This document shows positions 2,383 through 14,771 of a DNA stretch of 64,000 nucleotides, piece by piece (positions within the stretch are counted from its first letter, which is position 1; the number at the start of each line of letters is the position of its first letter). The position numbers and the translations under genes were made by a program. The DNA is taken from assembly GCA_963707635.1 (NCBI GenBank), contig OY970173.1, positions 2,080,001-2,144,000 of the forward strand, written 5' to 3'. The notes beneath the pieces were generated by a model. That model was not told where the DNA came from. It ran no database searches and saw only the letters and a list, made by a program, of their open reading frames with translations. The stretch comes from Candidatus Latescibacterota bacterium (GTDB lineage Bacteria > Krumholzibacteriota > Krumholzibacteriia > WVZY01 > JAKEHA01).

Positions 2383-3775
2383 CCACCCGCTCCCCCGTCC
2401 CCGGTTCCTGAACAGGACCTTTTTCCGCCGCAAGAAGCTCCAGCAACACCGGTCGCAGATTGTGTAGCGGCGATTCGATGACGTGTTCGAGCAGCCGCTC
2501 GAGCGCGCGTCCAACGGCGGGGCCCGGCCCGATACCCAGCACGCGCATCACGTCCCCGCCGTCGACCTCGAGGTCGGCGACCCGCAGCGCGGCCCGCTCC
2601 CGCCGCTCGTAGGCCACCCGCTTCCGCAGGGCGTCGAGTTGCCCCAGCTCTCCGGCCATCCCGTCGACGTGCAGGCGAGCGCGGCAGTCGGCTTCGCGCA
2701 GCCGGAAAAGATCGTCCAGCAGGTCGGAACCGACCGTGCGCATGAATCGCCTCACCGTGGCCGCGCGCCATTCCGGCGCGTACCGATACATGTGGTGCCG
2801 CACCAGGCGCCGGCAGCAGGCGACGAACGACGTCGGATAGCGTAACCGCCCCAGGACCGCTTCGGTGATGTCGGCACTCACCAGCTCGTGGCCGTAGAAG
2901 ACGACGCGGGACCCGCGCTCGTCGGTGACCGATTGTCGCGCGTCCACCTTGCCGGTGTCGTGCAGGAGCGCCGCCCACCGCACGAGCAGGTTCTCGCGCG
3001 GCGCCGCGTCGCAGGTCTTTAGCGAGTGCCAGTAGACGTCGTCGGGATGATACTCGTTCTGGGTGACGCCCGCACACCGGGCGAGTTCGGGAAGCATCAC
3101 CGCCAGAGCGCCGGTCTGGTAGAGCAGGTGCCACGCGGCGCCGGGACGGTCGCACTGGGTCATGGTCTTGGTGCACTCGTCGCGAATCCGCTCGGCACTG
3201 ACGGTCGCGACGAGGGCGGCCGATTCTCGCATCCGCGCGCGTGTTTCCGCATCCACCTCGAGGTCGAATCGCGCGGTGAAGCGTGCGCCGCGCAGAATTC
3301 GCAGCGGATCCTCCACGAACGCGCGCTCGAAGATGGTGCGCAGCCGGCGGCGCACGAGATCGCCGGCGCCGCCGAAGGGGTCGACCCGATGTCCGTCCGG
3401 GACGCGCTCCGCGATGGCGTTGATGGTGAAGTCCCGGCGGCGAAGATCGTCTTCCACCGGCAGCCGCCAGTCCCACCGCACGTCGAAGTCACGGTGCCCC
3501 GGTCCCGTCGACGTCTCGGTGCGCGGGAAGACTATATCGTAGGTGACGCCGTCGTCCGCCGCCGTGAACTTGTAGACGCCGAACGCCTTGCCGACCAGCG
3601 CCACGGCACCGTGGCGCGCGAGGATGCCTTCCAGCACCTCAGGCGGCAGCCCGCGCACGAGCAGGTCGGTGTCGGGCAGCCCCGACAACCCGAGCAACCG
3701 GTCGCGCACCGCGCCACCCACCCGGTACAGCTCTCCGCGCGCGAGGATTTCGGACTGCCAGGCCGGGAGGTTCAC
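2378..3775 (-). CDS. cca: CCA tRNA nucleotidyltransferase / poly(A) polymerase family with HD domain
   Basis: VGGAVRD, DTDLLV, DLRRRDFTINA, EDPLRILR and LLHDTGK motifs. GTG start overlaps the upstream stop (GTGA). Confidence 0.9.
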   Translation of the reverse strand: MNLPAWQSEILARGELYRVGGAVRDRLLGLSGLPDTDLLVRGLPPEVLEGILARHGAVALVGKAFGVYKFTAADDGVTYDIVFPRTETSTGPGHRDFDVRWDWRLPVEDDLRRRDFTINAIAERVPDGHRVDPFGGAGDLVRRRLRTIFERAFVEDPLRILRGARFTARFDLEVDAETRARMRESAALVATVSAERIRDECTKTMTQCDRPGAAWHLLYQTGALAVMLPELARCAGVTQNEYHPDDVYWHSLKTCDAAPRENLLVRWAALLHDTGKVDARQSVTDERGSRVVFYGHELVSADITEAVLGRLRYPTSFVACCRRLVRHHMYRYAPEWRAATVRRFMRTVGSDLLDDLFRLREADCRARLHVDGMAGELGQLDALRKRVAYERRERAALRVADLEVDGGDVMRVLGIGPGPAVGRALERLLEHVIESPLHNLRPVLLELLAAEKGPVQEPGTGERVE

Positions 3776-4746
3776 GGCTGCCCGTCGCGCGGCCAGCGCA
3801 CCGGGTGGCGCACCCAGAGTGCCAGACCCGCCAGCGCGGTCAGGTATGTACCGATCAGCACGTAGACGATCGAAAACCCGACCGCTTCGGCGCTGCCGAC
3901 GCCGACCACGGAGAAGAAGTAGATGACGGTCGCGTCTCGCGTCCCCAGCCCCGAAATCGAGAACGGGATCAATTCGACCAGTGTGACGATGGGCATCATC
4001 AACACGATGTAGGCCGGTGACACCGGGATCGAGAGGAGAAGCGATACGTAGACCGCCAGCGCAAAGATGAGCGCCCAGCACACGAGCGTCATCGCGGCCA
4101 TCACGGCGATGCGGCGGCGCGACGCGCCATAGACGCGGAGTGCGTCGTAGAAGGAATGAAAGCCGGTCGACCACCGGTCGCGATGGCGGGCCGGTACCAG
4201 AACCGAAAAGGCGGGTTTCAAGAGCGCCCGCATCCACCGCCGGTTGGTGGCCATGACCGCGGCGGCGGCGATGGCGGCCGCCCCGAGCGCGAACAGCGGC
4301 GCCGACGGAATCTGGATGTACCGCTGCGAGAATATCAGGGTGGTCGCGACCCCGCCGACCAGGATGAAGCCGAGGTCCCAGAGGCGGTCGACGAAGACCG
4401 TGAGGAGTGTTTCCCCCAGCGGACGACCGGTGTCCGTGCGGAGATAGAGCGCGCGAAGGGCGTCGCCGGCCTTGCCCGGGGTCACCGACGACGCGAAGAA
4501 GCCGATCATCCACACCGACGTGCTGCGCCGCAGCCCGTATTCCATGCCCAGGGAGCGGATGACGTAGCGCCAGCGCGCCCCGCGCGCGACGGAAATGGCG
4601 GCGATGATGAGCGGCGCCCACAGGAGCTGGACCGGCTCGATCCCGCGCAGGATCCCGATGATCCGGGCGGGGCCGGTGCGCGCGACGATGGCGGCGAATA
4701 TCGCCAGGCCGACGAGCGGCATCAGGATCGCAAGCGCGCGCTTCAT
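3772..4746 (-). CDS. Lysylphosphatidylglycerol synthase TM-domain / flippase-like membrane protein
   Basis: Multi-TM; RWRY, TPGKAGDALRA, DRLWD and PFSISGLGTRD motifs typical of the LPG_synthase_TM family. Confidence 0.8.
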   Translation of the reverse strand: MKRALAILMPLVGLAIFAAIVARTGPARIIGILRGIEPVQLLWAPLIIAAISVARGARWRYVIRSLGMEYGLRRSTSVWMIGFFASSVTPGKAGDALRALYLRTDTGRPLGETLLTVFVDRLWDLGFILVGGVATTLIFSQRYIQIPSAPLFALGAAAIAAAAVMATNRRWMRALLKPAFSVLVPARHRDRWSTGFHSFYDALRVYGASRRRIAVMAAMTLVCWALIFALAVYVSLLLSIPVSPAYIVLMMPIVTLVELIPFSISGLGTRDATVIYFFSVVGVGSAEAVGFSIVYVLIGTYLTALAGLALWVRHPVRWPRDGQP

Positions 4747-4803
4747 GAGGTCGATGGTTCGGATCGGGAATGGGTCCGGGGCCGCGGCGAATGAACCGGC
4801 TGC

Positions 4804-4832
4804 TTGATTTCGCCGCCCAACCCCCCTATAAT
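4804..4832 (+). promoter_or_regulatory. sigma70 promoter of the sat/cysC operon
   Basis: TTGATT-N17-TATAAT; AGGAG RBS at 4852-4856 before GTG 4864. Confidence 0.7.
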
Positions 4833-4863
4833 ACTCCAATCATAGCCCCTTAGGAGTCCATTT

Positions 4864-5082
4864 GTGAAGCACGACAAGGTCACGATCAAGATCCCCCGGC
4901 CCCTGTACAATCGAGTCCAGCAGCTCATCGACGACTCCGGATTCAATTCTCCGACCGACTTCATTGTATACGTGCTGCGCGACGTGTTGAGCGAGCGAGG
5001 CCTCGACCACGGGGACACGTTCACGCCGGAAGAGCTCGCCGCCATCAAGCAGAAGCTCCGGCGACTCGGATATCTCGACTAG
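4864..5082 (+). CDS. Small ribbon-helix-helix (CopG-like) protein with C-terminal LGY motif
   Basis: KVTIKIPRPLYNRVQQLI...FNSPTDFIVYVLRD RHH pattern; tail EELAAIKQKLRRLGYLD; good RBS. Confidence 0.8.
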   Translation: MKHDKVTIKIPRPLYNRVQQLIDDSGFNSPTDFIVYVLRDVLSERGLDHGDTFTPEELAAIKQKLRRLGYLD

Positions 5083-5106: not shown

Positions 5107-6267
5107 ATGATTGCACCACATGGCGGGACGCTGGTCTCGCGGATCGTTCCCGCGCGCGAACGAGACCCGCTGCGCGACCACGCCAGCACCCTGCCCGTCA
5201 TCGACCTCAACGCGCGCGAGTCGTCCGACCTGCTCTTGATCGCGATCGGCGGCATGAGTCCACTCGAGGGTTTCATGGGGCGGGCGGACTACGAGCACGT
5301 GCTCACCGACATGCGCCTCGCCTCCGGAATTCCGTGGTCGCTTCCGGTCACACTCTCGGTCGAGTCCGACACGATGCGCGGGCGCCGCACGCCCTTCGTC
5401 GCGTCCCTGCGCACTCCGGAGGGCAAGATCGTGGGCTTGATGACGGTGGACGAGCTCTTCGCCCCCGACAAGACGCGGGAGGCGGAACGAGCGCTGGGCA
5501 CGGCGGACCCCAGGCATCCCGGCGTGCAGTACCTCGACACGACCGGCGACCTGTACGCCGGCGGGAAGGTGTGGCTGCTCGAGCGCGTCAAGGACGGGCC
5601 GTTTGCCGCTCATGAGAGCGACCCGGCCGAGACACGTGCGCTCTTCGCCGAAAAGAAATGGGAGCGGGTGTGCGCGTTCCAGACCCGCAATCCGATCCAT
5701 CGCGCGCACGAGTATCTGATCAAGTGCGCGCTCGAAACCGTGGACGGGTTTCTGATCCACCCGGCGATGGGTGAAACCAAGTCCGACGACGTTCCGGCGG
5801 TGGTGCGGATGGAATGCTATCTCGCGCTGACGCGGAACTACTTCCCCGGTAGCCACGTCGCCCTGACGGTGTTTCCCTACGCGATGCGCTACGCGGGACC
5901 GCGCGAAGCGATCCTGCACGCGATCATTCGCAAGAACTACGGCTGCACGCATTTCATCGTGGGCCGCGACCACGCCGGCGTAGGCAACTATTACGGCACC
6001 TACGACGCCCAGCGCATCTTCGCGCAGTTCACCCCCGACGAGCTTGCGATCACGCCCGTGTTCTTCGAGCACTCGTTCTTCTGCACGCGTTGCGGCGGCA
6101 TGGCGTCGGAGAAGACGTGCCCGCACGGGGCGGAGAGCCGGGTGGCCTTGAGCGGCACCCGGGTGCGCGAGCTGCTCGCGAGCGGCGCGCCGCTGCCGGA
6201 CGAGTTCACCCGGCGCGAAGTGGCCGAGATCCTGCAGCGCCATTACGCCGGCGCGAAGGCGGGCTAG
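5107..6267 (+). CDS. sat: Sulfate adenylyltransferase (ATP sulfurylase)
   Basis: APHGG N-terminus, SPLEGFM, FQTRNPIHRAHE, YAGPREA, GRDHAGVG and Zn site CTRC...CPH. Confidence 0.97.
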   Translation: MIAPHGGTLVSRIVPARERDPLRDHASTLPVIDLNARESSDLLLIAIGGMSPLEGFMGRADYEHVLTDMRLASGIPWSLPVTLSVESDTMRGRRTPFVASLRTPEGKIVGLMTVDELFAPDKTREAERALGTADPRHPGVQYLDTTGDLYAGGKVWLLERVKDGPFAAHESDPAETRALFAEKKWERVCAFQTRNPIHRAHEYLIKCALETVDGFLIHPAMGETKSDDVPAVVRMECYLALTRNYFPGSHVALTVFPYAMRYAGPREAILHAIIRKNYGCTHFIVGRDHAGVGNYYGTYDAQRIFAQFTPDELAITPVFFEHSFFCTRCGGMASEKTCPHGAESRVALSGTRVRELLASGAPLPDEFTRREVAEILQRHYAGAKAG

Positions 6268-6270
6268 CCC

Positions 6271-7650
6271 GTGTCGCGACGCCTGCTCGTCATCGGCCTG
6301 GATTGCGTCACACCTGAATTGTTCTTCGGGCCGTGGTTGGAGGAAATGCCGAACCTGCGCCGGCTGATCCAGAACGGAATCCAGGCGCGTTTGGTCTCGA
6401 CGGTCCCGCCCATCACGGTCCCCGCCTGGATGGCCATGATGACCTCCCACGACCCGGGCATGCTGGGCATTTACGGCTTTCGCAATCGCGCGCGACACGA
6501 CTACGAAGACACCTACACCGTCAACGCCACCCACGTGCAGGCCCGCACGGTGTGGAACATCCTTTCCAGAAACCGGCTGCGATCGATCGTCATGGGAGTT
6601 CCGCTGACGTACCCGCCCAAGCCGCTCAACGGCTTGATGGTCGGGTGTTTCCTGACCCCGGACTCCGCCGCCGAGTTCACCTATCCCCCGGAGCTCAAGC
6701 GGCGGCTCAACACGCTGGCGGGCGGCGAGTACATCATCGACGTGAAGGATTTTCGCAACGAGCGCAAGCAGGAGACACTCGAGCAGATCGAACGCATGAC
6801 CGAACGGCGGTTTCGAGCGTTCCGCGGCCTGCTCGCGGGCGAAGAGTGGGATTTCGCGATGATGGTCGAGATGGGACCGGACCGGCTGCACCACGCTTTC
6901 TGGCGCTACTCCGATTCGGGACACCGGCTGTACGAAAAGGGCAACCCGTTCGAGGACGTCATCCACCGGTACTACCTCGAGATGGACGCCGAAATCGGCC
7001 GCACCGTCGACGCGGTGCCCGCGGACACATCGGTGATCGTCGTTTCGGACCACGGCGCCCGGCGCATGGCCGGCGCGATCTGCGTCAACGAGTTCCTGAT
7101 TCGCGAGGGCTACCTGACGCTCAAGTCGTACCCGGACCACCCGACGCGGCTCACCCCGGATCTGGTGGACTGGGATCGTACGTTGGCGTGGGGCGACGGC
7201 GGTTACTACGCGCGCGTGTTTCTCAACGTGGCCGGGCGCGAGCCCCGCGGGCAGGTGGCCCCCGACGACGCCGCGCGCGTCGGCCGCGAACTCGCGGCCA
7301 AGCTGGAGGCGCTCGGCGACGAGAACGGGCGCCCGATCGGGACGCGCGTATTCTTTCCCGGGGAGATCTATCGCGAAACGCGTGGGGTGCCGCCCGACCT
7401 GATCGTGTATCTTGGCGACCTCGAGTGGCGCAGCGCCGGAACCGTCGGACACGGCCGCGTGCACGTCTTCGAGAACGACACCGGGCCGGACGACGCGAAC
7501 CACGCCCAGGAAGGCGTCTTCGTGTGGGCGAACCGGGGCAAGGCGCCCGCGGGTCCGGTCGCGCGGGTGTCGATCTACGACGTGGCGCCCTCGATACTCG
7601 ACTACTTTTCGATACCGGCTCCGCCGGAGATGATCGGGCACGTGATTTAG
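6271..7650 (+). CDS. Alkaline phosphatase superfamily (nucleotide pyrophosphatase/phosphodiesterase-like) protein 1, cytoplasmic
   Basis: IGLD, STVPPITVPAW (Thr nucleophile position), DRLHH, SDHG and DDANH; no signal peptide. Confidence 0.88.
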   Translation: MSRRLLVIGLDCVTPELFFGPWLEEMPNLRRLIQNGIQARLVSTVPPITVPAWMAMMTSHDPGMLGIYGFRNRARHDYEDTYTVNATHVQARTVWNILSRNRLRSIVMGVPLTYPPKPLNGLMVGCFLTPDSAAEFTYPPELKRRLNTLAGGEYIIDVKDFRNERKQETLEQIERMTERRFRAFRGLLAGEEWDFAMMVEMGPDRLHHAFWRYSDSGHRLYEKGNPFEDVIHRYYLEMDAEIGRTVDAVPADTSVIVVSDHGARRMAGAICVNEFLIREGYLTLKSYPDHPTRLTPDLVDWDRTLAWGDGGYYARVFLNVAGREPRGQVAPDDAARVGRELAAKLEALGDENGRPIGTRVFFPGEIYRETRGVPPDLIVYLGDLEWRSAGTVGHGRVHVFENDTGPDDANHAQEGVFVWANRGKAPAGPVARVSIYDVAPSILDYFSIPAPPEMIGHVI

Positions 7651-7725: not shown

Positions 7726-8325
7726 ATGAAAGGCTTCACGCTGTGGTTCACCGGGCTACCCTCGTCGGGCAAGTCGACGCTGGCTCGTCGCGTGGAGGAG
7801 ATCCTCCTCGAGCGCGGGATGAACGTCGAGGTCCTGGACGGGGATGAAGTCCGCGAAAACTTGAGCAAGGGGCTCGGGTTCTCGAAGGAGGACCGCGACA
7901 CCAACATCCGGCGCATTGGCTTCGTCGCCAAGCTGCTCGCGCGCAACGGCGTGGTCGCCATCACGGCGGCGATTTCGCCCTACCGCGACGTGCGCGATGA
8001 AATGCGGCGCGCGATCGGACGCTTCGTCGAGGTGTACGTCGAGTGCCCCATCGACGTGCTCAAGGAACGAGACGTCAAGGGCCTGTACAAGAAGGCGCTG
8101 GCCGGCGAGATCAAGCATTTCACCGGCGTGGACGATCCCTACGAGCCGCCGCTCAAACCCGAAGTGGTCGTGCACAGCGACCGCGAGGGCGTGGACGAGA
8201 GCGTGGCCCGGATCGTGGGAACGCTCGAAGTGCTCGGGTACATCCCGCGGGCGTCCGGGGGCGACTTCTCCGCCGCCGAAGAGGAAACCATCAAACGCCG
8301 GCTTAAGGATCTCGGCTACATCTGA
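7726..8325 (+). CDS. cysC: Adenylyl-sulfate (APS) kinase with C-terminal LGY extension
   Basis: [39 protein letters not shown] and FTGVDDPYE; tail [15 protein letters not shown]. Confidence 0.96.
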
Positions 8326-8330
8326 CCCCC

Positions 8331-9657
8331 ATGCTCAAGTGGTTTCAGCAACCGGCGGAGCGGGCCTGCGTCGTCGGACTCGACGGCGTTCCCTGCTCGA
8401 TGATCCGGCGCTTCACGCAATCCGGCGTCATGCCCCGCATGGCGGAAATCGTGGCCCGGGGCGCCCTGCGCGAAACCACCGTGTCGCTGCCCGAGATCTC
8501 TTCCGTCAGCTGGTCGTCGTTCATGACCGGCAAGAACCCGGGTGAGCACGGCATCTTCGGATTCACCGATTTGCACCCGGGGACCTACACGCAGAGCTTC
8601 CCGAGTTTTCGCGACCTCAAGTGCGACACCATCTGGGACCGCCTCGGCGAGCGCAAGATGCGCAGCGTCGTGATCAACCAGCCCGCGACCTATCCGGCGC
8701 GGCCGATCCACGGCGTGCTGGTGTCGGGCTTCGTCGCGGTTCACCTCGACCGCTCCGTGTTTCCCGCGCGCTATCTGCGCCTGCTGCGCGACATCAACTA
8801 CGAGATCGACCTCGACGCAGAGGTCGTGCGCGACAACCCGACGGCCCTGTTCCGCAAGCTGCACGAGTTGCTCATCGCGCGCGAGCGGTTGCTGGACGCG
8901 CTGTGGACGGAAGAGAAATGGAACCTGATGCAGGTGGTGGTCACCGGAACCGACCGCCTGCACCACTTCCTCTTCGACGCATACGACGACGCGGCCCACC
9001 CGGAGCACCAGGGTTTTCTCGACTACTATCGAGCGGTGGACGCGTTCGTCGGGCGCGTTTACGACCGCTTTGCCGCCTCCGGCGACGGGCGAAACTTCTT
9101 CGTCCTTTCCGACCACGGGTTTTGCCGCACGAGCCACGAGGTGAACGTCAACGCCGTCCTGGAGCAGAACGGGCTGCTCGCCTTCGCGACGGCCGACGCG
9201 ACCGGGCTGGACGGAATCTCCGAGCGCGCGGCGGCGTTCGCGCTGGACCCCGCGCGCCTCTATGTCCACCGCCGCGGCCGCTTCCCCCGCGGTGGGGTGG
9301 CCGAGGATCGCGTCGAGGGCGTCCTCGACGAGCTCACGGCCCTGTTCACGTCGCTGCGCGCACGAGGGAGAGCCGGTCGTGCGCCGGATCTTTCGCGGGC
9401 GCGATGTGTACCATGGCAGTGAAGCGGCCCGCGGTCCGGACCTGTTGCTCGTTCCCGTCAACGGGTTCGACCTGAAGGGGCGCGTGCGCGCGCGCGAGGT
9501 GGTGGCTCCCCGCCGTCTCCAGGGCATGCACACCTGGGACGACGCGTTCGTGGCCACGCTGCGCACGGACCTCGTCCCCCAGGGCCGCGAGCTGACGCTG
9601 CTGGACGTGCCGCGGATGATTCTCAAGAGCCTCCATGTCGAACCGATGGATTCGTAG
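8331..9657 (+). CDS. AlkP/NPP-like protein 2, cytoplasmic; single frameshift near 9360 (sequencing error or pseudogene)
   Basis: GLDGVP, VSLPEISSVSW, DRLHH and SDHG in frame 8331. The family-like C-terminus (EPVVRRIFRGRDVYHG..GPDLL..QGMHTWDDAF) continues in ORF 9262..9657. Confidence 0.82.
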
Positions 9658-11689
9658 CATCGCCGTCGTGACGCTGGCGCTGTGGCCGACCGCGGCGTTC
9701 GCCTACATCGGGCCCGGCGCCGGCTTCGCGCTGGTGTCGTCGTTCGTGACGCTGGTGGTGGCGTTCGGGGCCGCGTTCTTTGCGGTGTTCGCGCTGCCGG
9801 TGCGCGTGCTCGTGCGGCAGTGGAAGCGGCGCCGCTCACTCCGGCACGCGCGCGTGAAGAAGGTGATCGTGCTCGGCCTGGACGGGCTCGACCCCGACAT
9901 CTGCGAGGCACTGTTCGCGCGCGGGGACCTTCCCCACCTGCGCAAACTCCGCGACGAAGGGACCTACCGCCGGCTGGGCACGTCGATGCCCGCCCTCTCG
10001 CCGGTCGCGTGGTCGACCTTCGCCACCGGCGCCGACCCGTCGCGACACGGAATATTCGACTTCGTGGCGCGCGATCCCCGCACCTACGCCCCGCACCTTT
10101 CGTCGAGCGAAGTGTACGGACGCACCCGTTTCATCGGCGTCGGACGGCTCCGGTTCCCGGTTTCGAGCGGCGGCGTGCGCGGATTCCGGCGCAGCCGGAC
10201 GTTCTGGCGGGTGCTTTCCGACCACGGCGTGGCCTCCTCCGTCCTGCGGGTTCCGATCACATTTCCGGTCGAGAAGATCGACGGTGTGATGATCGCCGGC
10301 ATGTGCGTGCCGGATCTGCGCGGCACCCAGGGATCGTTCACGTTCATCACCAGCGACTCCGAGTCGCCCCCGCGCGGCGGGGTCGTGATCGACGTGCCCG
10401 CGTCGGGAGGTGCCGTCGTCATCCCCGGCCCCGCGAGCCCGATCGACGGCAAGCCGATTTCGGTGCGTGTCGAGATCCGTCGCACACGCGACGCCGGCCA
10501 CGAGCTCGTCGTGGGGCGGGAGCGCGTGGCGCTGCGCGAGCGGGAATACACGCCCTGGGTGAGACTCGCCTTTCGCGCCGCGCGCGGGCTGACCGCCAGC
10601 GGCATCGCGCGCTTCTATCCCGTGCGCCTGGCCGACGGCCTCGCCATCTACGTGACGCCGATTCACGTCGACCCGGAGCACCCGGCGATTCCGATCTCGC
10701 ATCCGTCGGTGTTTTCAGTCTACCTGGCGAAGCTCATGGGGCCGTTCGGGACCCTCGGGCTGGCGGAGGACACCAGCGCGCTCAACGACGGAGCCATCGA
10801 CGAGCAGGCCTTTCTCGACCAGGCCTACGACCTGCACGCGGAGCGACGCGCCATGTGGGAGCACGCGCTGGCGCGGCTGCGCGGCGGCCTGGCGGTGTGC
10901 GTGTTCGATATCAGCGATCGCCTCCAGCACATGTTCTTTCGCTATCGCGACCCGGCCCATCCAGCCAACGCGGGCCGCGACGTGACGCGCCACGCGGACG
11001 CGATTCACGAGATGTACCGGCGCATGGACACCCTGGTCGGTGAGACGATCGCGCGGGTGGATCGCCACACGGCGCTGTTCGTGATGTCGGACCACGGCTT
11101 CAAGCAGTTCCGCCGCGGCGTCAACCTCAACGGGTGGCTCGCGCGCGCCGGGCTGCTCGCGGTCAAGGAAGGCGCCGGACCCGGCGAGTACCTGAGCGCA
11201 ATCGACTGGAGCCGGACCCGGGCGTACGCGCTGGGGTTGAGCGGCATCTACCTGAACCTGCGCGGCCGCGAGCGGGACGGCATCGTAGACGCCGCCGACG
11301 CGGACGGCCTGAAGCAAACTATCATTCGCGGGCTCACCGCGCTGCGCGATGGCGACGGTCCCGTCATCCGCCGGGTCGTCGACGTGGCGCGCGACCTCGA
11401 CGGTCCCTATCGCGATGGCGGGCCCGACCTGCTGCCGGGCTACGAGGACGGTTACCGCGTGTCGTGGGACTGCGCCAAGGGATCGGTGCGCGACGAGTTG
11501 TTCGAAGACAACACGAAGTGCTGGAGCGGCGATCATTGCGTGGACTCCGACATCGTCCCCGGCGTCCTGTTCACGAACGTCGCGCTGGACGAGGGGCCGA
11601 TCGGGCTGGAAGACGTCGGCCCGACCATTCTGGATCTCTTCGGCGTGCCGGTTCCTTCCTATATGACCGGACGGAGCCGGGCGAAATGA
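9635..11689 (+). CDS. AlkP/NPP-like protein 3 with signal peptide, YIGPG motif and TM anchor
   Basis: N-terminus ...TAAFA-YIGPGAG, then a hydrophobic helix and RQWKRRR; followed by GLDGLD, TSMPALSPVAW, DRLQH, SDHG and SGDH. Confidence 0.87.
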   Translation: MSNRWIRSIAVVTLALWPTAAFAYIGPGAGFALVSSFVTLVVAFGAAFFAVFALPVRVLVRQWKRRRSLRHARVKKVIVLGLDGLDPDICEALFARGDLPHLRKLRDEGTYRRLGTSMPALSPVAWSTFATGADPSRHGIFDFVARDPRTYAPHLSSSEVYGRTRFIGVGRLRFPVSSGGVRGFRRSRTFWRVLSDHGVASSVLRVPITFPVEKIDGVMIAGMCVPDLRGTQGSFTFITSDSESPPRGGVVIDVPASGGAVVIPGPASPIDGKPISVRVEIRRTRDAGHELVVGRERVALREREYTPWVRLAFRAARGLTASGIARFYPVRLADGLAIYVTPIHVDPEHPAIPISHPSVFSVYLAKLMGPFGTLGLAEDTSALNDGAIDEQAFLDQAYDLHAERRAMWEHALARLRGGLAVCVFDISDRLQHMFFRYRDPAHPANAGRDVTRHADAIHEMYRRMDTLVGETIARVDRHTALFVMSDHGFKQFRRGVNLNGWLARAGLLAVKEGAGPGEYLSAIDWSRTRAYALGLSGIYLNLRGRERDGIVDAADADGLKQTIIRGLTALRDGDGPVIRRVVDVARDLDGPYRDGGPDLLPGYEDGYRVSWDCAKGSVRDELFEDNTKCWSGDHCVDSDIVPGVLFTNVALDEGPIGLEDVGPTILDLFGVPVPSYMTGRSRAK

Positions 11690-13626
11690 AGGGTCTCATC
11701 GGCGCGCTGCTGGTCGCGATGCTGGCGACGCCGGCCGCCGCGGCCGGCGAGCATCCCTCGGTGGTCGTGCTCGGCATCGACGGCATGGACCCCGATCTGC
11801 TGACAAGATTCATGTCCGAAGGGCGCATGCCGAATTTTTCCGCGTTGATCGCGGAGGGATCGTTCACGCGACTGGAGACGTCGATTCCCCCGCAGAGCCC
11901 GGTCGCGTGGTCGAACTTCATCACCGGCATGGACCCGGGCGGCCACGGCATCTTCGACTTCATCCACCGCGACCCCGCCACTTATACCCCGGTGTTTTCC
12001 GCCGCCGACATCGAGGAGCCGTCGAAGACTCTCTCACTCGGCGACTGGCTGCTCCCCTTGTCGGGGGGCGGCACGGTGCTGCTGCGCAAGGGCGAGGCGT
12101 TCTGGCAGGTGCTGGACCGCGCGGGAATTCCGTGCACGGTAATCCGCGTGCCGGCCAACTATCCACCTGCGAAGACGTCGGCGCGCACGCTCTCGGGGAT
12201 GGGCACACCGGACCTGCTCGGGAGCTACGGCACCTTTACGCTCTACACCGACGACGACATATGGCGCGGCGCCCACGTGAGCGGCGGGCGCGTGGTGATG
12301 GTCGACCGGGTGGACGACCGGGCGCGAATTCAGATCGAGGGGCCGAAGAACTCGTTGCGCAAGAGCCAGCCGACGCTGGCGCGGGAAGCCGTGGTCGACG
12401 TCGACCCCGAGCACGATGCGGCCCGGATCGCGGTCGGTGGCGAGGAGATCGTGCTCCACGCCGCAGAGTGGAGCGGCTGGGTCCCCATCGACTTCGACGT
12501 GCTCGGGCCGGTGAAGAAGCTCCGCGGCATGTGTCGATTCTATTTGAAGAGCGTGCGCCCGTCACTCCAGCTCTACGTGTCGCCTCTGAACCTAGACCCG
12601 CTGCACCCGGCGCTTCCCATCTCCACACCCGAAGACTATTGCGCCGACCTGGCGCGGCGGGTCGGGCGCTACTACACGCAGGGGATCGCGGAAGACACCA
12701 AGGCGCTCGAAGCGGGCGCGCTGAACGACGCGGAGTTCGTGGAGCTGACCGATACGCTGCTCTCGGAGCGCGAGCGCATGCTCGACGCGGTCCTCTCGGA
12801 TTATCGCGACGGCTTCTTGTTCTTCTACGTGTCGACCATCGACCAGTCGTGCCACGCCCTGTGGCGCAATGCGGACGCGGCGCACCCCGCCCACCCGGCG
12901 GACGGCGCGTTCGCGGACCGCTTCGCGACCCTCTACGCAGAAATGGATCGCGTGCTGGGAACGATTCGCGCGCGTATTCCCCGCGACGCCACCATGATCG
13001 TCATGTCCGACCACGGCTTTGCGCCCTACTACCAGAAGGTGCACTTGAACACCTGGCTGTACCGCAACGGGTACCTCGCCCTCGTGCGTGCGGACGAACC
13101 CGGGGGCCCGCTGTTCGGCAACGTGTTTTGGCGCCGCACGCGGGCCTACGCGGCGGGCCTCAACGGGCTCTACCTGAACGTGGCCGGCCGGGAGGCGCGC
13201 GGGATCGTCGCGCGCGGCGCGGAATACGACGATCTCCTGGCCGAGATCGCGACGAAGCTGCTCGAGTTTCGCGACCCCGAAAACGGCGAACGGGTGGTGA
13301 CGACCGTCTATCGGGCCCGCGACGTCTACCACGGATCGGAGGTGGGTGCGGCTCCCGACCTGATCGTGGGGTACAATCGTGGGTACCGGTCGAGCGACGA
13401 TTCGGCGCTGGGGACGGTCACCTCGGAGCTGCTGACCCCCAACCTCGGCAAATGGACCGGCGACCATTGCATGGACCATCACCTCGTGCCCGGAATCCTG
13501 GTGTGCAACCGGCCGCTGCGCGCGGGCGACCCGCGGCTGATCGACCTGCCCGTCACGATCCTGGCGCTGTTCGGCGTGGACGCGCCGGCCGCGATGACGG
13601 GCCGGGCGCTGATCGACACCCCCTGA
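11686..13626 (+). CDS. AlkP/NPP-like protein 4, exported (Sec signal peptide)
   Basis: ATGA overlap with the previous gene; MKGLIGALLVAMLATPAAAA signal; GIDGMD, TSIPPQSPVAW, DQSCH, SDHG and TGDH; paralog of protein 3. Confidence 0.87.
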   Translation: MKGLIGALLVAMLATPAAAAGEHPSVVVLGIDGMDPDLLTRFMSEGRMPNFSALIAEGSFTRLETSIPPQSPVAWSNFITGMDPGGHGIFDFIHRDPATYTPVFSAADIEEPSKTLSLGDWLLPLSGGGTVLLRKGEAFWQVLDRAGIPCTVIRVPANYPPAKTSARTLSGMGTPDLLGSYGTFTLYTDDDIWRGAHVSGGRVVMVDRVDDRARIQIEGPKNSLRKSQPTLAREAVVDVDPEHDAARIAVGGEEIVLHAAEWSGWVPIDFDVLGPVKKLRGMCRFYLKSVRPSLQLYVSPLNLDPLHPALPISTPEDYCADLARRVGRYYTQGIAEDTKALEAGALNDAEFVELTDTLLSERERMLDAVLSDYRDGFLFFYVSTIDQSCHALWRNADAAHPAHPADGAFADRFATLYAEMDRVLGTIRARIPRDATMIVMSDHGFAPYYQKVHLNTWLYRNGYLALVRADEPGGPLFGNVFWRRTRAYAAGLNGLYLNVAGREARGIVARGAEYDDLLAEIATKLLEFRDPENGERVVTTVYRARDVYHGSEVGAAPDLIVGYNRGYRSSDDSALGTVTSELLTPNLGKWTGDHCMDHHLVPGILVCNRPLRAGDPRLIDLPVTILALFGVDAPAAMTGRALIDTP

Positions 13627-13646: not shown

Positions 13647-13838
13647 ATGTTCGGAAAGAATCGAGTTACCCTCGAAAAGGATCTGTTCGAGCGCGTGCGC
13701 GCGGCCTCGGAGAAGGCAGGGTACGCGTCGGCCGACGAGTTCGTCGCCCACGTGCTCGAACGCGAGCTCGCGAAAACGGAAGCGGGGTCGAGCGGCGACG
13801 TGAAGAAGCAGCTCGAGGGCCTCGGCTACATTTCCTGA
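13647..13838 (+). CDS. Second small RHH-like protein with C-terminal LGY motif
   Basis: AAGGAG RBS; MFGKNRVTLEKDLFERVRAASEKAGYASADEFVAHVLERE...DVKKQLEGLGYIS, resembling the 4864 protein. Confidence 0.8.
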   Translation: MFGKNRVTLEKDLFERVRAASEKAGYASADEFVAHVLERELAKTEAGSSGDVKKQLEGLGYIS

Positions 13839-13839
13839 C

Positions 13840-14661
13840 GTGTTCCTGCTCGCGCGCATCGTGACCCTCGTCTTCGACGCGCTGGTGGCGCCGTTCGGCT
13901 CCCATCGGCTCGCCGCGCTGCTGGCGGTTTCCCTGCTGGGCGGGGCAATGCTCGCGCTGGTTTTTCGCGCGACCTCGAAGCAGGCCGCCATCGGCCGTTC
14001 GCGCGAGCGGTTCAAGGCGCGGATACTCGAGATGCGTCTCTACCCGGACGACATCGTCCTGATCACGCGCGCGTTCGGGGGCGCACTCGCCGCGCAGGGT
14101 GCGTATCTCAAGTACGCCGCGCCCGGGATCCTGGCAGCGGTCGTGCTCGCCGCCCCGCTGTTCGTACAACTCGAGCAGCGCTTCGCCTCCCGCGCGCTCC
14201 CGCCCGGGAGCCGCACGCTGGTCACGGCGACGCTGGCGGAGGGCACCGACCCGCGCGCGGTCGTCACCTCGCTTTCCGGACCCGCCGGGACCGAGGTGGA
14301 CGCACGCTCGCTGCGCGCGAGGGCATCGCGCGACGTCGTGTGGGTCGTGGATGTCCGGGAGCGCGGCCGCCACGAGATGGAGCTCACGCTGGGAGCGCAG
14401 GCGTATCGATTCCCCATCGAGGCGAAGGAATCGTGCCGCGCGATCGGTCGACGACGAAGCGCGGGTTCCTGGGTCGACGCGGGGACGCAGGTCGGGCTGC
14501 CCGGGATCGCGGCGGGGGGCCCCATAGCAGGGGTTCGCATCCATTACCCGGCCGCGCACTATCGACTGCTGGGGATCGGGATGAACTGGCTGGCTGTATT
14601 CCTGATCGGGACTCTGGTGGGCGCGGTCCTGCCGGCGCGGCTGTTGAGAATCCACCTCTAG
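13840..14661 (+). CDS. Membrane protein, DUF106/EMC3/TMCO1-like topology with soluble insertion
   Basis: TM, basic helical segment (KQAAIGRSRERFKARILEMRL), TM, beta-rich insertion, then C-terminal TM WLAVFLIGTL..ARLL. Family assignment by eye only. Confidence 0.6.
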   Translation: MFLLARIVTLVFDALVAPFGSHRLAALLAVSLLGGAMLALVFRATSKQAAIGRSRERFKARILEMRLYPDDIVLITRAFGGALAAQGAYLKYAAPGILAAVVLAAPLFVQLEQRFASRALPPGSRTLVTATLAEGTDPRAVVTSLSGPAGTEVDARSLRARASRDVVWVVDVRERGRHEMELTLGAQAYRFPIEAKESCRAIGRRRSAGSWVDAGTQVGLPGIAAGGPIAGVRIHYPAAHYRLLGIGMNWLAVFLIGTLVGAVLPARLLRIHL

Positions 14662-14678: not shown

Positions 14679-14771
14679 TGGTGCCGGAGGCCGGAGTCGA
14701 ACCGGCACGGGGCTTTCAAAGGCCCCAGCGGATTTTAAGTCCGCTGCGTCTACCAATTCCGCCACTCCGGC
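14679..14771 (-). tRNA. tRNA-Leu (TAA)
   Basis: GCCGGAGTGGCGGAATTGGTAGACGCAGCGGAC-TTAAAA-TCCGCT, long variable arm, GGTTCGACTCC, encoded CCA. Confidence 0.96.

Follow-up and report, generated by a model that had tools for sequence, protein, structure and literature searches.

The stretch of DNA described here is a 64,000-nucleotide window of the genome of Candidatus Latescibacterota bacterium (contig OY970173.1, positions 2,080,001 to 2,144,000), and it encodes a protein of the alkaline phosphatase (AlkP) superfamily, AlkP3, which begins with a short membrane module tipped by a tyrosine. We propose that this tyrosine would take sulfate to the exported paralog AlkP4 on the other side of the inner membrane, in the form of an aryl sulfate and with the help of a YidC-like membrane protein of the same operon, and we give this reading a probability of about 0.6; the gene context indicates that the carried group is probably sulfate. 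The case for a sulfate relay is that the gene for a free peptide with the same tyrosine tip lies elsewhere between the genes of a cytoplasmic 3′-phosphoadenosine 5′-phosphosulfate (PAPS) sulfotransferase and a membrane-anchored arylsulfate sulfotransferase (ASST), and that in the window the peptide forms one protein with an AlkP enzyme of the inner side in a sulfate-activation operon, with the exported paralog next to it. All positions are window coordinates, and the labels of loci and genomes (L006, L007, G201 and the like) are those of this analysis.

The N-terminal module of AlkP3 is encoded on the forward strand and consists of four parts. Translation and comparison with homologs defined a signal-peptide-like leader of 23 amino acids (9635..9703), with a basic n-region, a hydrophobic h-region, a proline at position −6 and the residues A-F-A immediately before Tyr24. 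The leader is followed by the motif YIGPGAGFA (9704..9730), delimited by its conservation across homologs, in which Tyr24 is the proposed sulfate carrier. A single transmembrane (TM) helix (9731..9802), which ends at the invariant Pro55 and is followed by the invariant Arg57, was placed by hydropathy, by an AlphaFold2 (AF2) model and by the invariant columns of the alignment; 19-residue Kyte-Doolittle windows scoring above 1.6 start at residues 24–43, with a peak of 2.43. The last part is a basic cluster (9803..9862) with 10 lysine or arginine residues among residues 57–76, which this count and the positive-inside rule predict to be cytoplasmic. The same order of leader, YIGPG, helix and basic cluster had been read by the first-pass annotation at 9635..9860, and the translation matches it exactly.

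The conservation of the motif was analyzed in the best 120 of 7588 AlkP3 matches, which were full-length and 55–93% identical to AlkP3. The data showed that Y-x-G-P-G-A-G-F-A was present in 118 of them, and the two misses were N-terminally truncated. The first-pass annotation had made its proposal depend on a conserved tyrosine, and the residue was found in all 118 full-length homologs having an N-terminus. The alanine at position −1 was equally fixed (118/118), while the leader varied freely in length and sequence. In an alignment of 108 rows the motif was the best-conserved nine-residue window of AlkP3, with eight of nine columns invariant as compared to six of nine for the catalytic motifs and 103 of 661 columns overall. 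Among 16 GTDB loci the motif occurred in all 13 bacterial ones, from Krumholzibacteria, Acidobacteria, Aminicenantes and Calditrichaceae, and the three archaeal loci were of the AlkP1 type, without YIGPG. This conservation is far beyond chance. Neither Pfam nor NCBIfam holds a family for the module, and the ESM Atlas returned for it just unnamed clusters of 69- to 80-aa proteins at 0.90–0.91. One fragment carried a PF28147 tag, which a local Pfam scan did not return. Among plasmid records there was no match to the carrier, and the AlkP matches were distant and exclusively haloarchaeal. A search for short homologs was set aside, as its matches were mostly contig-end fragments of AlkP3.

The first-pass annotation had also claimed that cleavage after A-F-A would leave the tyrosine at the mature N-terminus. 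By our own heuristic AlkP3 has the features of a leader for Sec and signal peptidase I (n-region, h-region and small residues at −3 and −1), and a small-x-small pattern precedes the tyrosine in 117 of 118 close homologs versus 76 of 120 more distant fragments. Cleavage before the tyrosine is not essential, however, because in the DNA of 30 loci from the order containing the Bryobacteraceae genome of L007 there are five with leaders of 6–10 residues without an h-region. In four of these five the start codon belongs to an ATGA shared with the upstream stop codon, and in four a stop in the same frame lies a short way upstream. A leader of at most 11 residues counted from the methionine was also seen in 10 of the 120 more distant fragments, and L012 has a similarly short one, with its AlkP3 gene frameshifted farther on. 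Judged from these sequences, the conserved feature is a single helix with a tyrosine at its N-terminus or close to it, and not a free alpha-amine. Whether the leader is cut or not, the positive-inside rule, which is long established, predicts that the tyrosine faces outward and the catalytic domain inward, the topology given in the first-pass annotation.

Free proteins of 70–92 aa with a leader, the motif A-Y-[IVT]-G-P-G, a helix and a basic cluster were also found, and they are homologous to the AlkP3 N-terminus, with an hhalign probability of 98.6 and identical spacing from the tyrosine to the proline. Six such stand-alone loci came from five genomes of this phylum. An ASST gene (PF14269) lies upstream in five of the six and a sulfotransferase gene downstream, recognized by PF13469 in three loci and by homologous open reading frames (ORFs) in two more; where the contigs extend far enough, the genes follow one another as ASST, carrier, membrane protein and PAPS-type sulfotransferase. 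A metagenome scan gave 407 confirmed loci, and neighbourhoods were counted, with profiles made from our own loci, in the best 80 of these 407. Of the 80, 53 had an adjacent ASST and 55 an adjacent sulfotransferase; 37 had both and 71 had at least one, in a set that is biased to the ASST-adjacent subfamily from which the query was built. All 36 loci of at least 5 kb contained at least one of the two enzymes and 26 contained both, and the nine loci with neither were all shorter than 5 kb. A profile search in which the tyrosine was not a condition yielded 3336 cluster representatives at 50% clustering, and the tyrosine was present in all of the best 150 (149 by pattern and one by eye). The ASST enzymes take sulfate from aryl sulfates and accept tyrosine peptides, as described in a 2026 review, according to which their natural substrates have not been identified (PMC13426309).

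Most stand-alone carriers have behind them an unnamed 128-aa membrane protein that contains a helical hairpin (L070:6706-7089, L071:6025-6408), and in L069:6260-7735 it is fused to the sulfotransferase. The small proteins with AYIDPG to which the first-pass annotation had pointed do exist, in five loci, and hhalign shows them to be homologs of the GPG type (probability 97). The genes of these YIDPG microproteins (L074-L078) run into the beginning of a conserved gene for a 460-aa protein whose C-terminal domain is methyltransferase-like, and possibly these loci are a sister relay for another group. The 460-aa genes presumably resemble NoeA-like genes.

The module also travels with particular partners. 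In 20 loci of this phylum AlkP3, AlkP4 and a membrane protein of the type encoded at 13840 were adjacent in every case, together with an LGY-tailed protein in 19 and with the adenosine 5′-phosphosulfate (APS) kinase gene cysC in seven. This supports the pairing of AlkP3 with AlkP4 in the first-pass proposal. In three further loci (L006, L007 and L012) AlkP4 was not adjacent, and in two of those three genomes it was found elsewhere; an absence of AlkP4 from Bryobacteraceae was considered and rejected on this ground, as AlkP4 is present in G201 and G202 (it was not found in G203). Of the 111 genomes with a strong module match, 104 had an APS kinase, versus 28 of 90 others, a descriptive comparison in which relatives are not independent. 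In one family (f5) it occurred in 3 of 42 genomes, exactly the three with a strong module match.

AlkP3 itself (9635..11689, forward strand) is a protein of 684 aa that profile, alignment, AF2 and Foldseek place in the nucleotide pyrophosphatase/phosphodiesterase (NPP) branch of the AlkP superfamily (PF01663, E 1.6e-31). The metal ligands Asp83, Asp428, His432, Asp486, His487 and His634, and Ser122 at the nucleophile position, are invariant in the 108 rows, which makes the enzyme look active. The AF2 model of mature AlkP3 had a mean predicted local distance difference test (pLDDT) score of 89.2, with low confidence for residues 1–4 and one helix over residues 4–48. Foldseek found phosphonoacetate hydrolase and NPPs nearest to it (E 3e-10; PDB 3SZY, 2GSN). 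AlkP3 shares with this branch the fold, the two-metal ligands and the position of the Ser/Thr nucleophile, and differs from it in its identity of 11–14%, a large beta-rich insertion, the predicted cytoplasmic location and the tyrosine-tipped anchor.

The first-pass annotation was silent on how an enzyme on the inner face would load a tyrosine on the outer face, and the protein of 273 aa encoded at 13840..14661 (forward strand) is a candidate for this step. It is a membrane protein of DUF106/Ylp1-like type with an immunoglobulin (Ig)-like domain between TM2 and TM3. The only clear sequence match of its family profile in the PDB was archaeal MJ0480/Ylp1 (E 2.2e-6 with 29 rows, 7.3e-8 with 76 rows), and PF01956 was detected in 2 of 29 members (best E 0.0026). 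Its AF2 model (pLDDT 91.5) consists of TM1, a helical hairpin, TM2, the Ig-like domain and TM3. Among 48,161 chains the best structural match was a chain of the multipass translocon (Z 10.7, root-mean-square deviation (rmsd) 3.9, 135 residues aligned) and the third was YidC (Z 7.5, rmsd 6.8, 150 aligned), Z values that the tool grades as only moderate for helical proteins. The translocon chain is chain 8 of PDB 7TUT, which we take to be TMCO1; the tool gave the entry title only. Foldseek returned no match to the model at E <= 0.001, and Ig-like domains alone were seen. Polar or charged residues are conserved at S31, K/R43, E64, R77, N/Q86, Y89 and Q110. By profile and model, the 13840 protein is a member of the YidC/Oxa1 superfamily.

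The Oxa1 superfamily (Ylp1/MJ0480, PDB 5C8J; YidC; TMCO1; EMC3; Get1) has in common with the 13840 protein a three-TM core and a coiled coil after TM1, and is described as having a lipid-exposed hydrophilic groove, substrates with small translocated regions and a Sec-independent route for N-tails provided by YidC-family proteins (PMC5868721). The groove is argued to work by hydration and not by charge attraction (PMC8920935). The AlkP3 variants without a signal would need such a Sec-independent route for their N-tail, which fits a YidC-family function. The 13840 protein, a bacterial paralog of DUF106 type that has an Ig-like insert and is tied to one operon, differs in these respects from the known members, which insert proteins during biogenesis. 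To our knowledge, no Oxa1-superfamily member is known to serve a group-transfer cycle. A homolog of the 13840 protein also adjoins the stand-alone carriers in L067/L068 (probability 92) and in 4 of the 80 metagenome loci. A complex prediction of AlkP4, the 13840 protein and the AlkP3 N-terminal peptide scored 0.00 with controls that did not fold, and it is evidence neither way.

From the observed genes, conservation, homologies and neighbourhoods we infer each chemical step as follows. Sat and CysC would make APS and PAPS in the cytoplasm, and the cytoplasmic AlkP1 and AlkP2 would hand the sulfate, possibly via the tyrosines of LGY tails, to Ser122 of AlkP3, which would in turn sulfate the YIGPG tyrosine to tyrosine-O-sulfate. 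For this the short N-tail would have to enter or traverse the membrane, and the most likely path is the hydrophilic groove of the YidC-like protein. On the outside AlkP4 would take the sulfate through its own serine and donate it to a glycan or lipid of the cell surface. In the stand-alone versions the PAPS sulfotransferase and ASST would replace the donor and acceptor AlkP enzymes, and the tyrosine module would be retained. The first-pass proposal of a second tyrosine carrier that would hand the group from AlkP3 to AlkP4 is supported in part, by the invariant tyrosine, the stand-alone carriers between PAPS sulfotransferases and ASSTs and the other tyrosine-tailed proteins of the operon; as regards cleavage it is not supported as stated. 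A more far-reaching version can be offered tentatively, as an idea with less than even odds: the YidC/Oxa1 protein may be repurposed as a shuttle gate, with the N-tail cycled in for sulfation and out to donate and the added negative charge giving direction via the membrane potential, and the sulfotyrosine microproteins, which number in the thousands, may be the missing natural donor of extracytoplasmic ASSTs and of an AlkP-fold sulfotransferase class.

Several observations weigh against the sulfate relay. The ASST family PF14269 was not found in this genome, so that the pair of sulfotransferase and ASST with a shuttle is present for the stand-alone homologs elsewhere and absent here, and the sulfate argument is borrowed from relatives. 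The metagenome counts come from carriers selected for their ASST neighbours, and the 128-aa membrane protein beside the carrier in 46 of the 80 loci showed no homology to the 13840 protein (probability 0.3). An APS kinase was not found in 7 of the 111 module genomes (those genomes being 68–92% complete). The continuous helix over residues 4–48 in the AF2 monomer would by helix geometry place the tyrosine about 60–70 Å from the enzyme body, and in this model loading Tyr24 would need a large movement. Proteins of the YidC type are known for one-way insertion.

The motif could instead be a docking or assembly tag that binds the YidC-like protein or AlkP4 and is inserted once by the YidC-like protein, with the sulfate crossing by another carrier such as a lipid or a small aryl molecule, comparable to the pyrone shuttle of caprazamycin. 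We consider this unlikely, even though the GPGAGFA run and the alanine at −1 are as invariant as the tyrosine, which fits a binding surface, the tyrosine is far from the active site in the AlkP3 model, the variants without a signal could need a dedicated insertase for biogenesis alone, and a flippase-like gene flanks the operon. The tyrosine is never replaced by Phe or Trp in the 118 full-length and the 150 best stand-alone homologs, and the module is kept across unrelated folds, the AlkP pair and the sulfotransferase with ASST, whose common need is an aryl-sulfate intermediate and not a common surface.

It is also conceivable, at rather low odds, that the tyrosine is a covalent carrier of a phosphoryl-type group (adenylyl, phospho or phosphodiester), transferred by NPP chemistry on APS, PAPS or another nucleotide. 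The nearest structures of AlkP3, NPPs and phosphonoacetate hydrolase with their two-metal sites and Ser/Thr nucleophile, attack phosphorus, cysC is not adjacent in 13 of the 20 loci, and the YIDPG homologs are followed by methyltransferase-like genes (one also has a sulfatase-like gene on its upstream side), so that the family may carry other groups; all three points also count against sulfate. The interleaving of sat and cysC with the AlkP genes, the LGY tail of CysC, the confinement of APS kinase in family f5 to the genomes with a strong module match and the tie of the nearest stand-alone homologs to sulfotransferases argue for sulfate. Finally, most characterized NPPs are extracytoplasmic and the topology of AlkP3 comes from rules only, which would fit an ordinary membrane-anchored ecto-phosphodiesterase with inverted topology or an uncleaved leader and a periplasmic catalytic domain. 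This is very improbable, since the two hydrophobic segments put the domain inside, cleaved or not, 10 lysine or arginine residues follow the helix, the basic cluster is retained in the enzyme-less stand-alone homologs, and the invariant tyrosine would be left unexplained.

The genes of the operon lie on one strand, the forward one, in the order LGY protein, sat, AlkP1, cysC, AlkP2, AlkP3, AlkP4, LGY protein and the 13840 gene, and the metal sites of all four AlkP-fold enzymes are intact. The first gene (4864..5082) encodes a ribbon-helix-helix-like small protein with an LGY tail, and is followed by sulfate adenylyltransferase (sat, 5107..6267), assigned by profile matches, by AlkP1 (6271..7650), a PF01663 paralog without a signal peptide, and by APS kinase (cysC, 7726..8325), which has a C-terminal LGY tail in 13 of 13 orthologs. 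AlkP2 (8331..9660) is likewise a PF01663 paralog without a signal peptide; it is split in this assembly by a frameshift near 9361-9374 and intact in relatives, which points to an assembly error or a recent break. AlkP4 (11686..13626), the proposed outside acceptor enzyme, is 38% identical to AlkP3 and has an N-terminal signal peptide, with twin-arginine-type leaders in four orthologs; an in-frame TGA suspected in two of its orthologs proved to be the normal stop. The 63-aa ribbon-helix-helix-like protein at 13647..13838, with a weak match to NikR (E 0.005) and an LGY tail in 31 of 31 orthologs, is a candidate cytoplasmic tyrosine carrier. An acidic helix with an LGY tail thus ends three operon proteins (4864-5082, 7726-8325 and 13647-13838) and none of the four AlkP enzymes, while other AlkP or sulfatase-like proteins of the genome have LGY at their own C-terminus. 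The tail may be a trans-acting tyrosine carrier or a completing helix.

A divergent flippase-like gene (LPG synthase TM; 3772..4839, reverse strand) is kept beside the operon in close relatives, which hints at a lipid-linked acceptor. Between it and the operon, at 4804-4868, there are divergent matches to the sigma-70-like promoter consensus, and a tRNA-like sequence lies directly after the operon on the reverse strand (14680-14770). Acidobacteria (L006:7036-13246, L007, L010, L012) have a short sulfatase-like gene coupled to AlkP3 on its upstream side; in L006 the cassette is followed by a GH20-like hydrolase, and in L007 by an ORF resembling it. A tandem pair of almost identical AlkP-family genes, each with an N-terminal anchor, lies outside the window at G000:C1:2930600-2935131.

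The DltB/DltX/DltD and PatA/PatB shuttles share with the module an invariant tyrosine at the outward end of a membrane-anchored peptide, which is free in DltX and donor-fused in PatA, and this tyrosine receives an acyl group from a donor in the cytoplasm and passes it to a transferase on the outside that uses a serine intermediate (PMC12148441). There the tyrosine is part of a C-terminal FxYxxF motif, the group is acyl, and loading takes place in an MBOAT funnel with an SGNH enzyme as partner (PMC12148441). The AlkP3 module differs in its N-terminal A-Y-[IV]-G-P-G, in its AlkP or sulfotransferase and ASST partners, in its YidC-like partner and in its group, which is probably sulfate. No MBOAT or SGNH partner was found among the operon proteins scanned with family profiles. 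By this comparison, the module would work like a DltX-type shuttle, yet without the defining motif and partners of that family.

A two-step sulfate relay with Cpz8 and a pyrone reportedly operates in caprazamycin biosynthesis. ASST systems and Cpz4 of caprazamycin have in common with the module a two-step sulfation via an aryl-sulfate intermediate, and ASST genes flank the stand-alone carriers (PMC13426309). The caprazamycin shuttle is, however, a small molecule that does not cross a membrane, and the window has no ASST and uses AlkP paralogs. In Halobacterium salinarum two AlkP-core-fold proteins, Agl30 and Agl31, one membrane-bound and one soluble, are required for sulfation of a lipid-linked glycan (PMC11980604). 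They differ in being sulfatase-like, and the passages searched name no donor or carrier (PMC11980604).

No description of the motif or cassette was found in literature titles and abstract openings, a scope outside which subscription papers and supplements may bear on novelty, and passage searches of PMC11766843, PMC11625862 and bioRxiv 10.64898/2026.10.08.757636 turned up nothing on either. PAPS is a cytoplasmic product, yet outward-facing enzymes of sulfate transfer occur in many bacteria. If the proposed relay is correct, the sulfated tyrosine on a membrane peptide family of 3336 representatives would be a specific donor for ASSTs, and the tyrosine-shuttle principle of DltX and PatA would extend from acyl groups to sulfate. 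It would also give a function to many proteins annotated merely as alkaline phosphatase family and a new job to the YidC-like fold.

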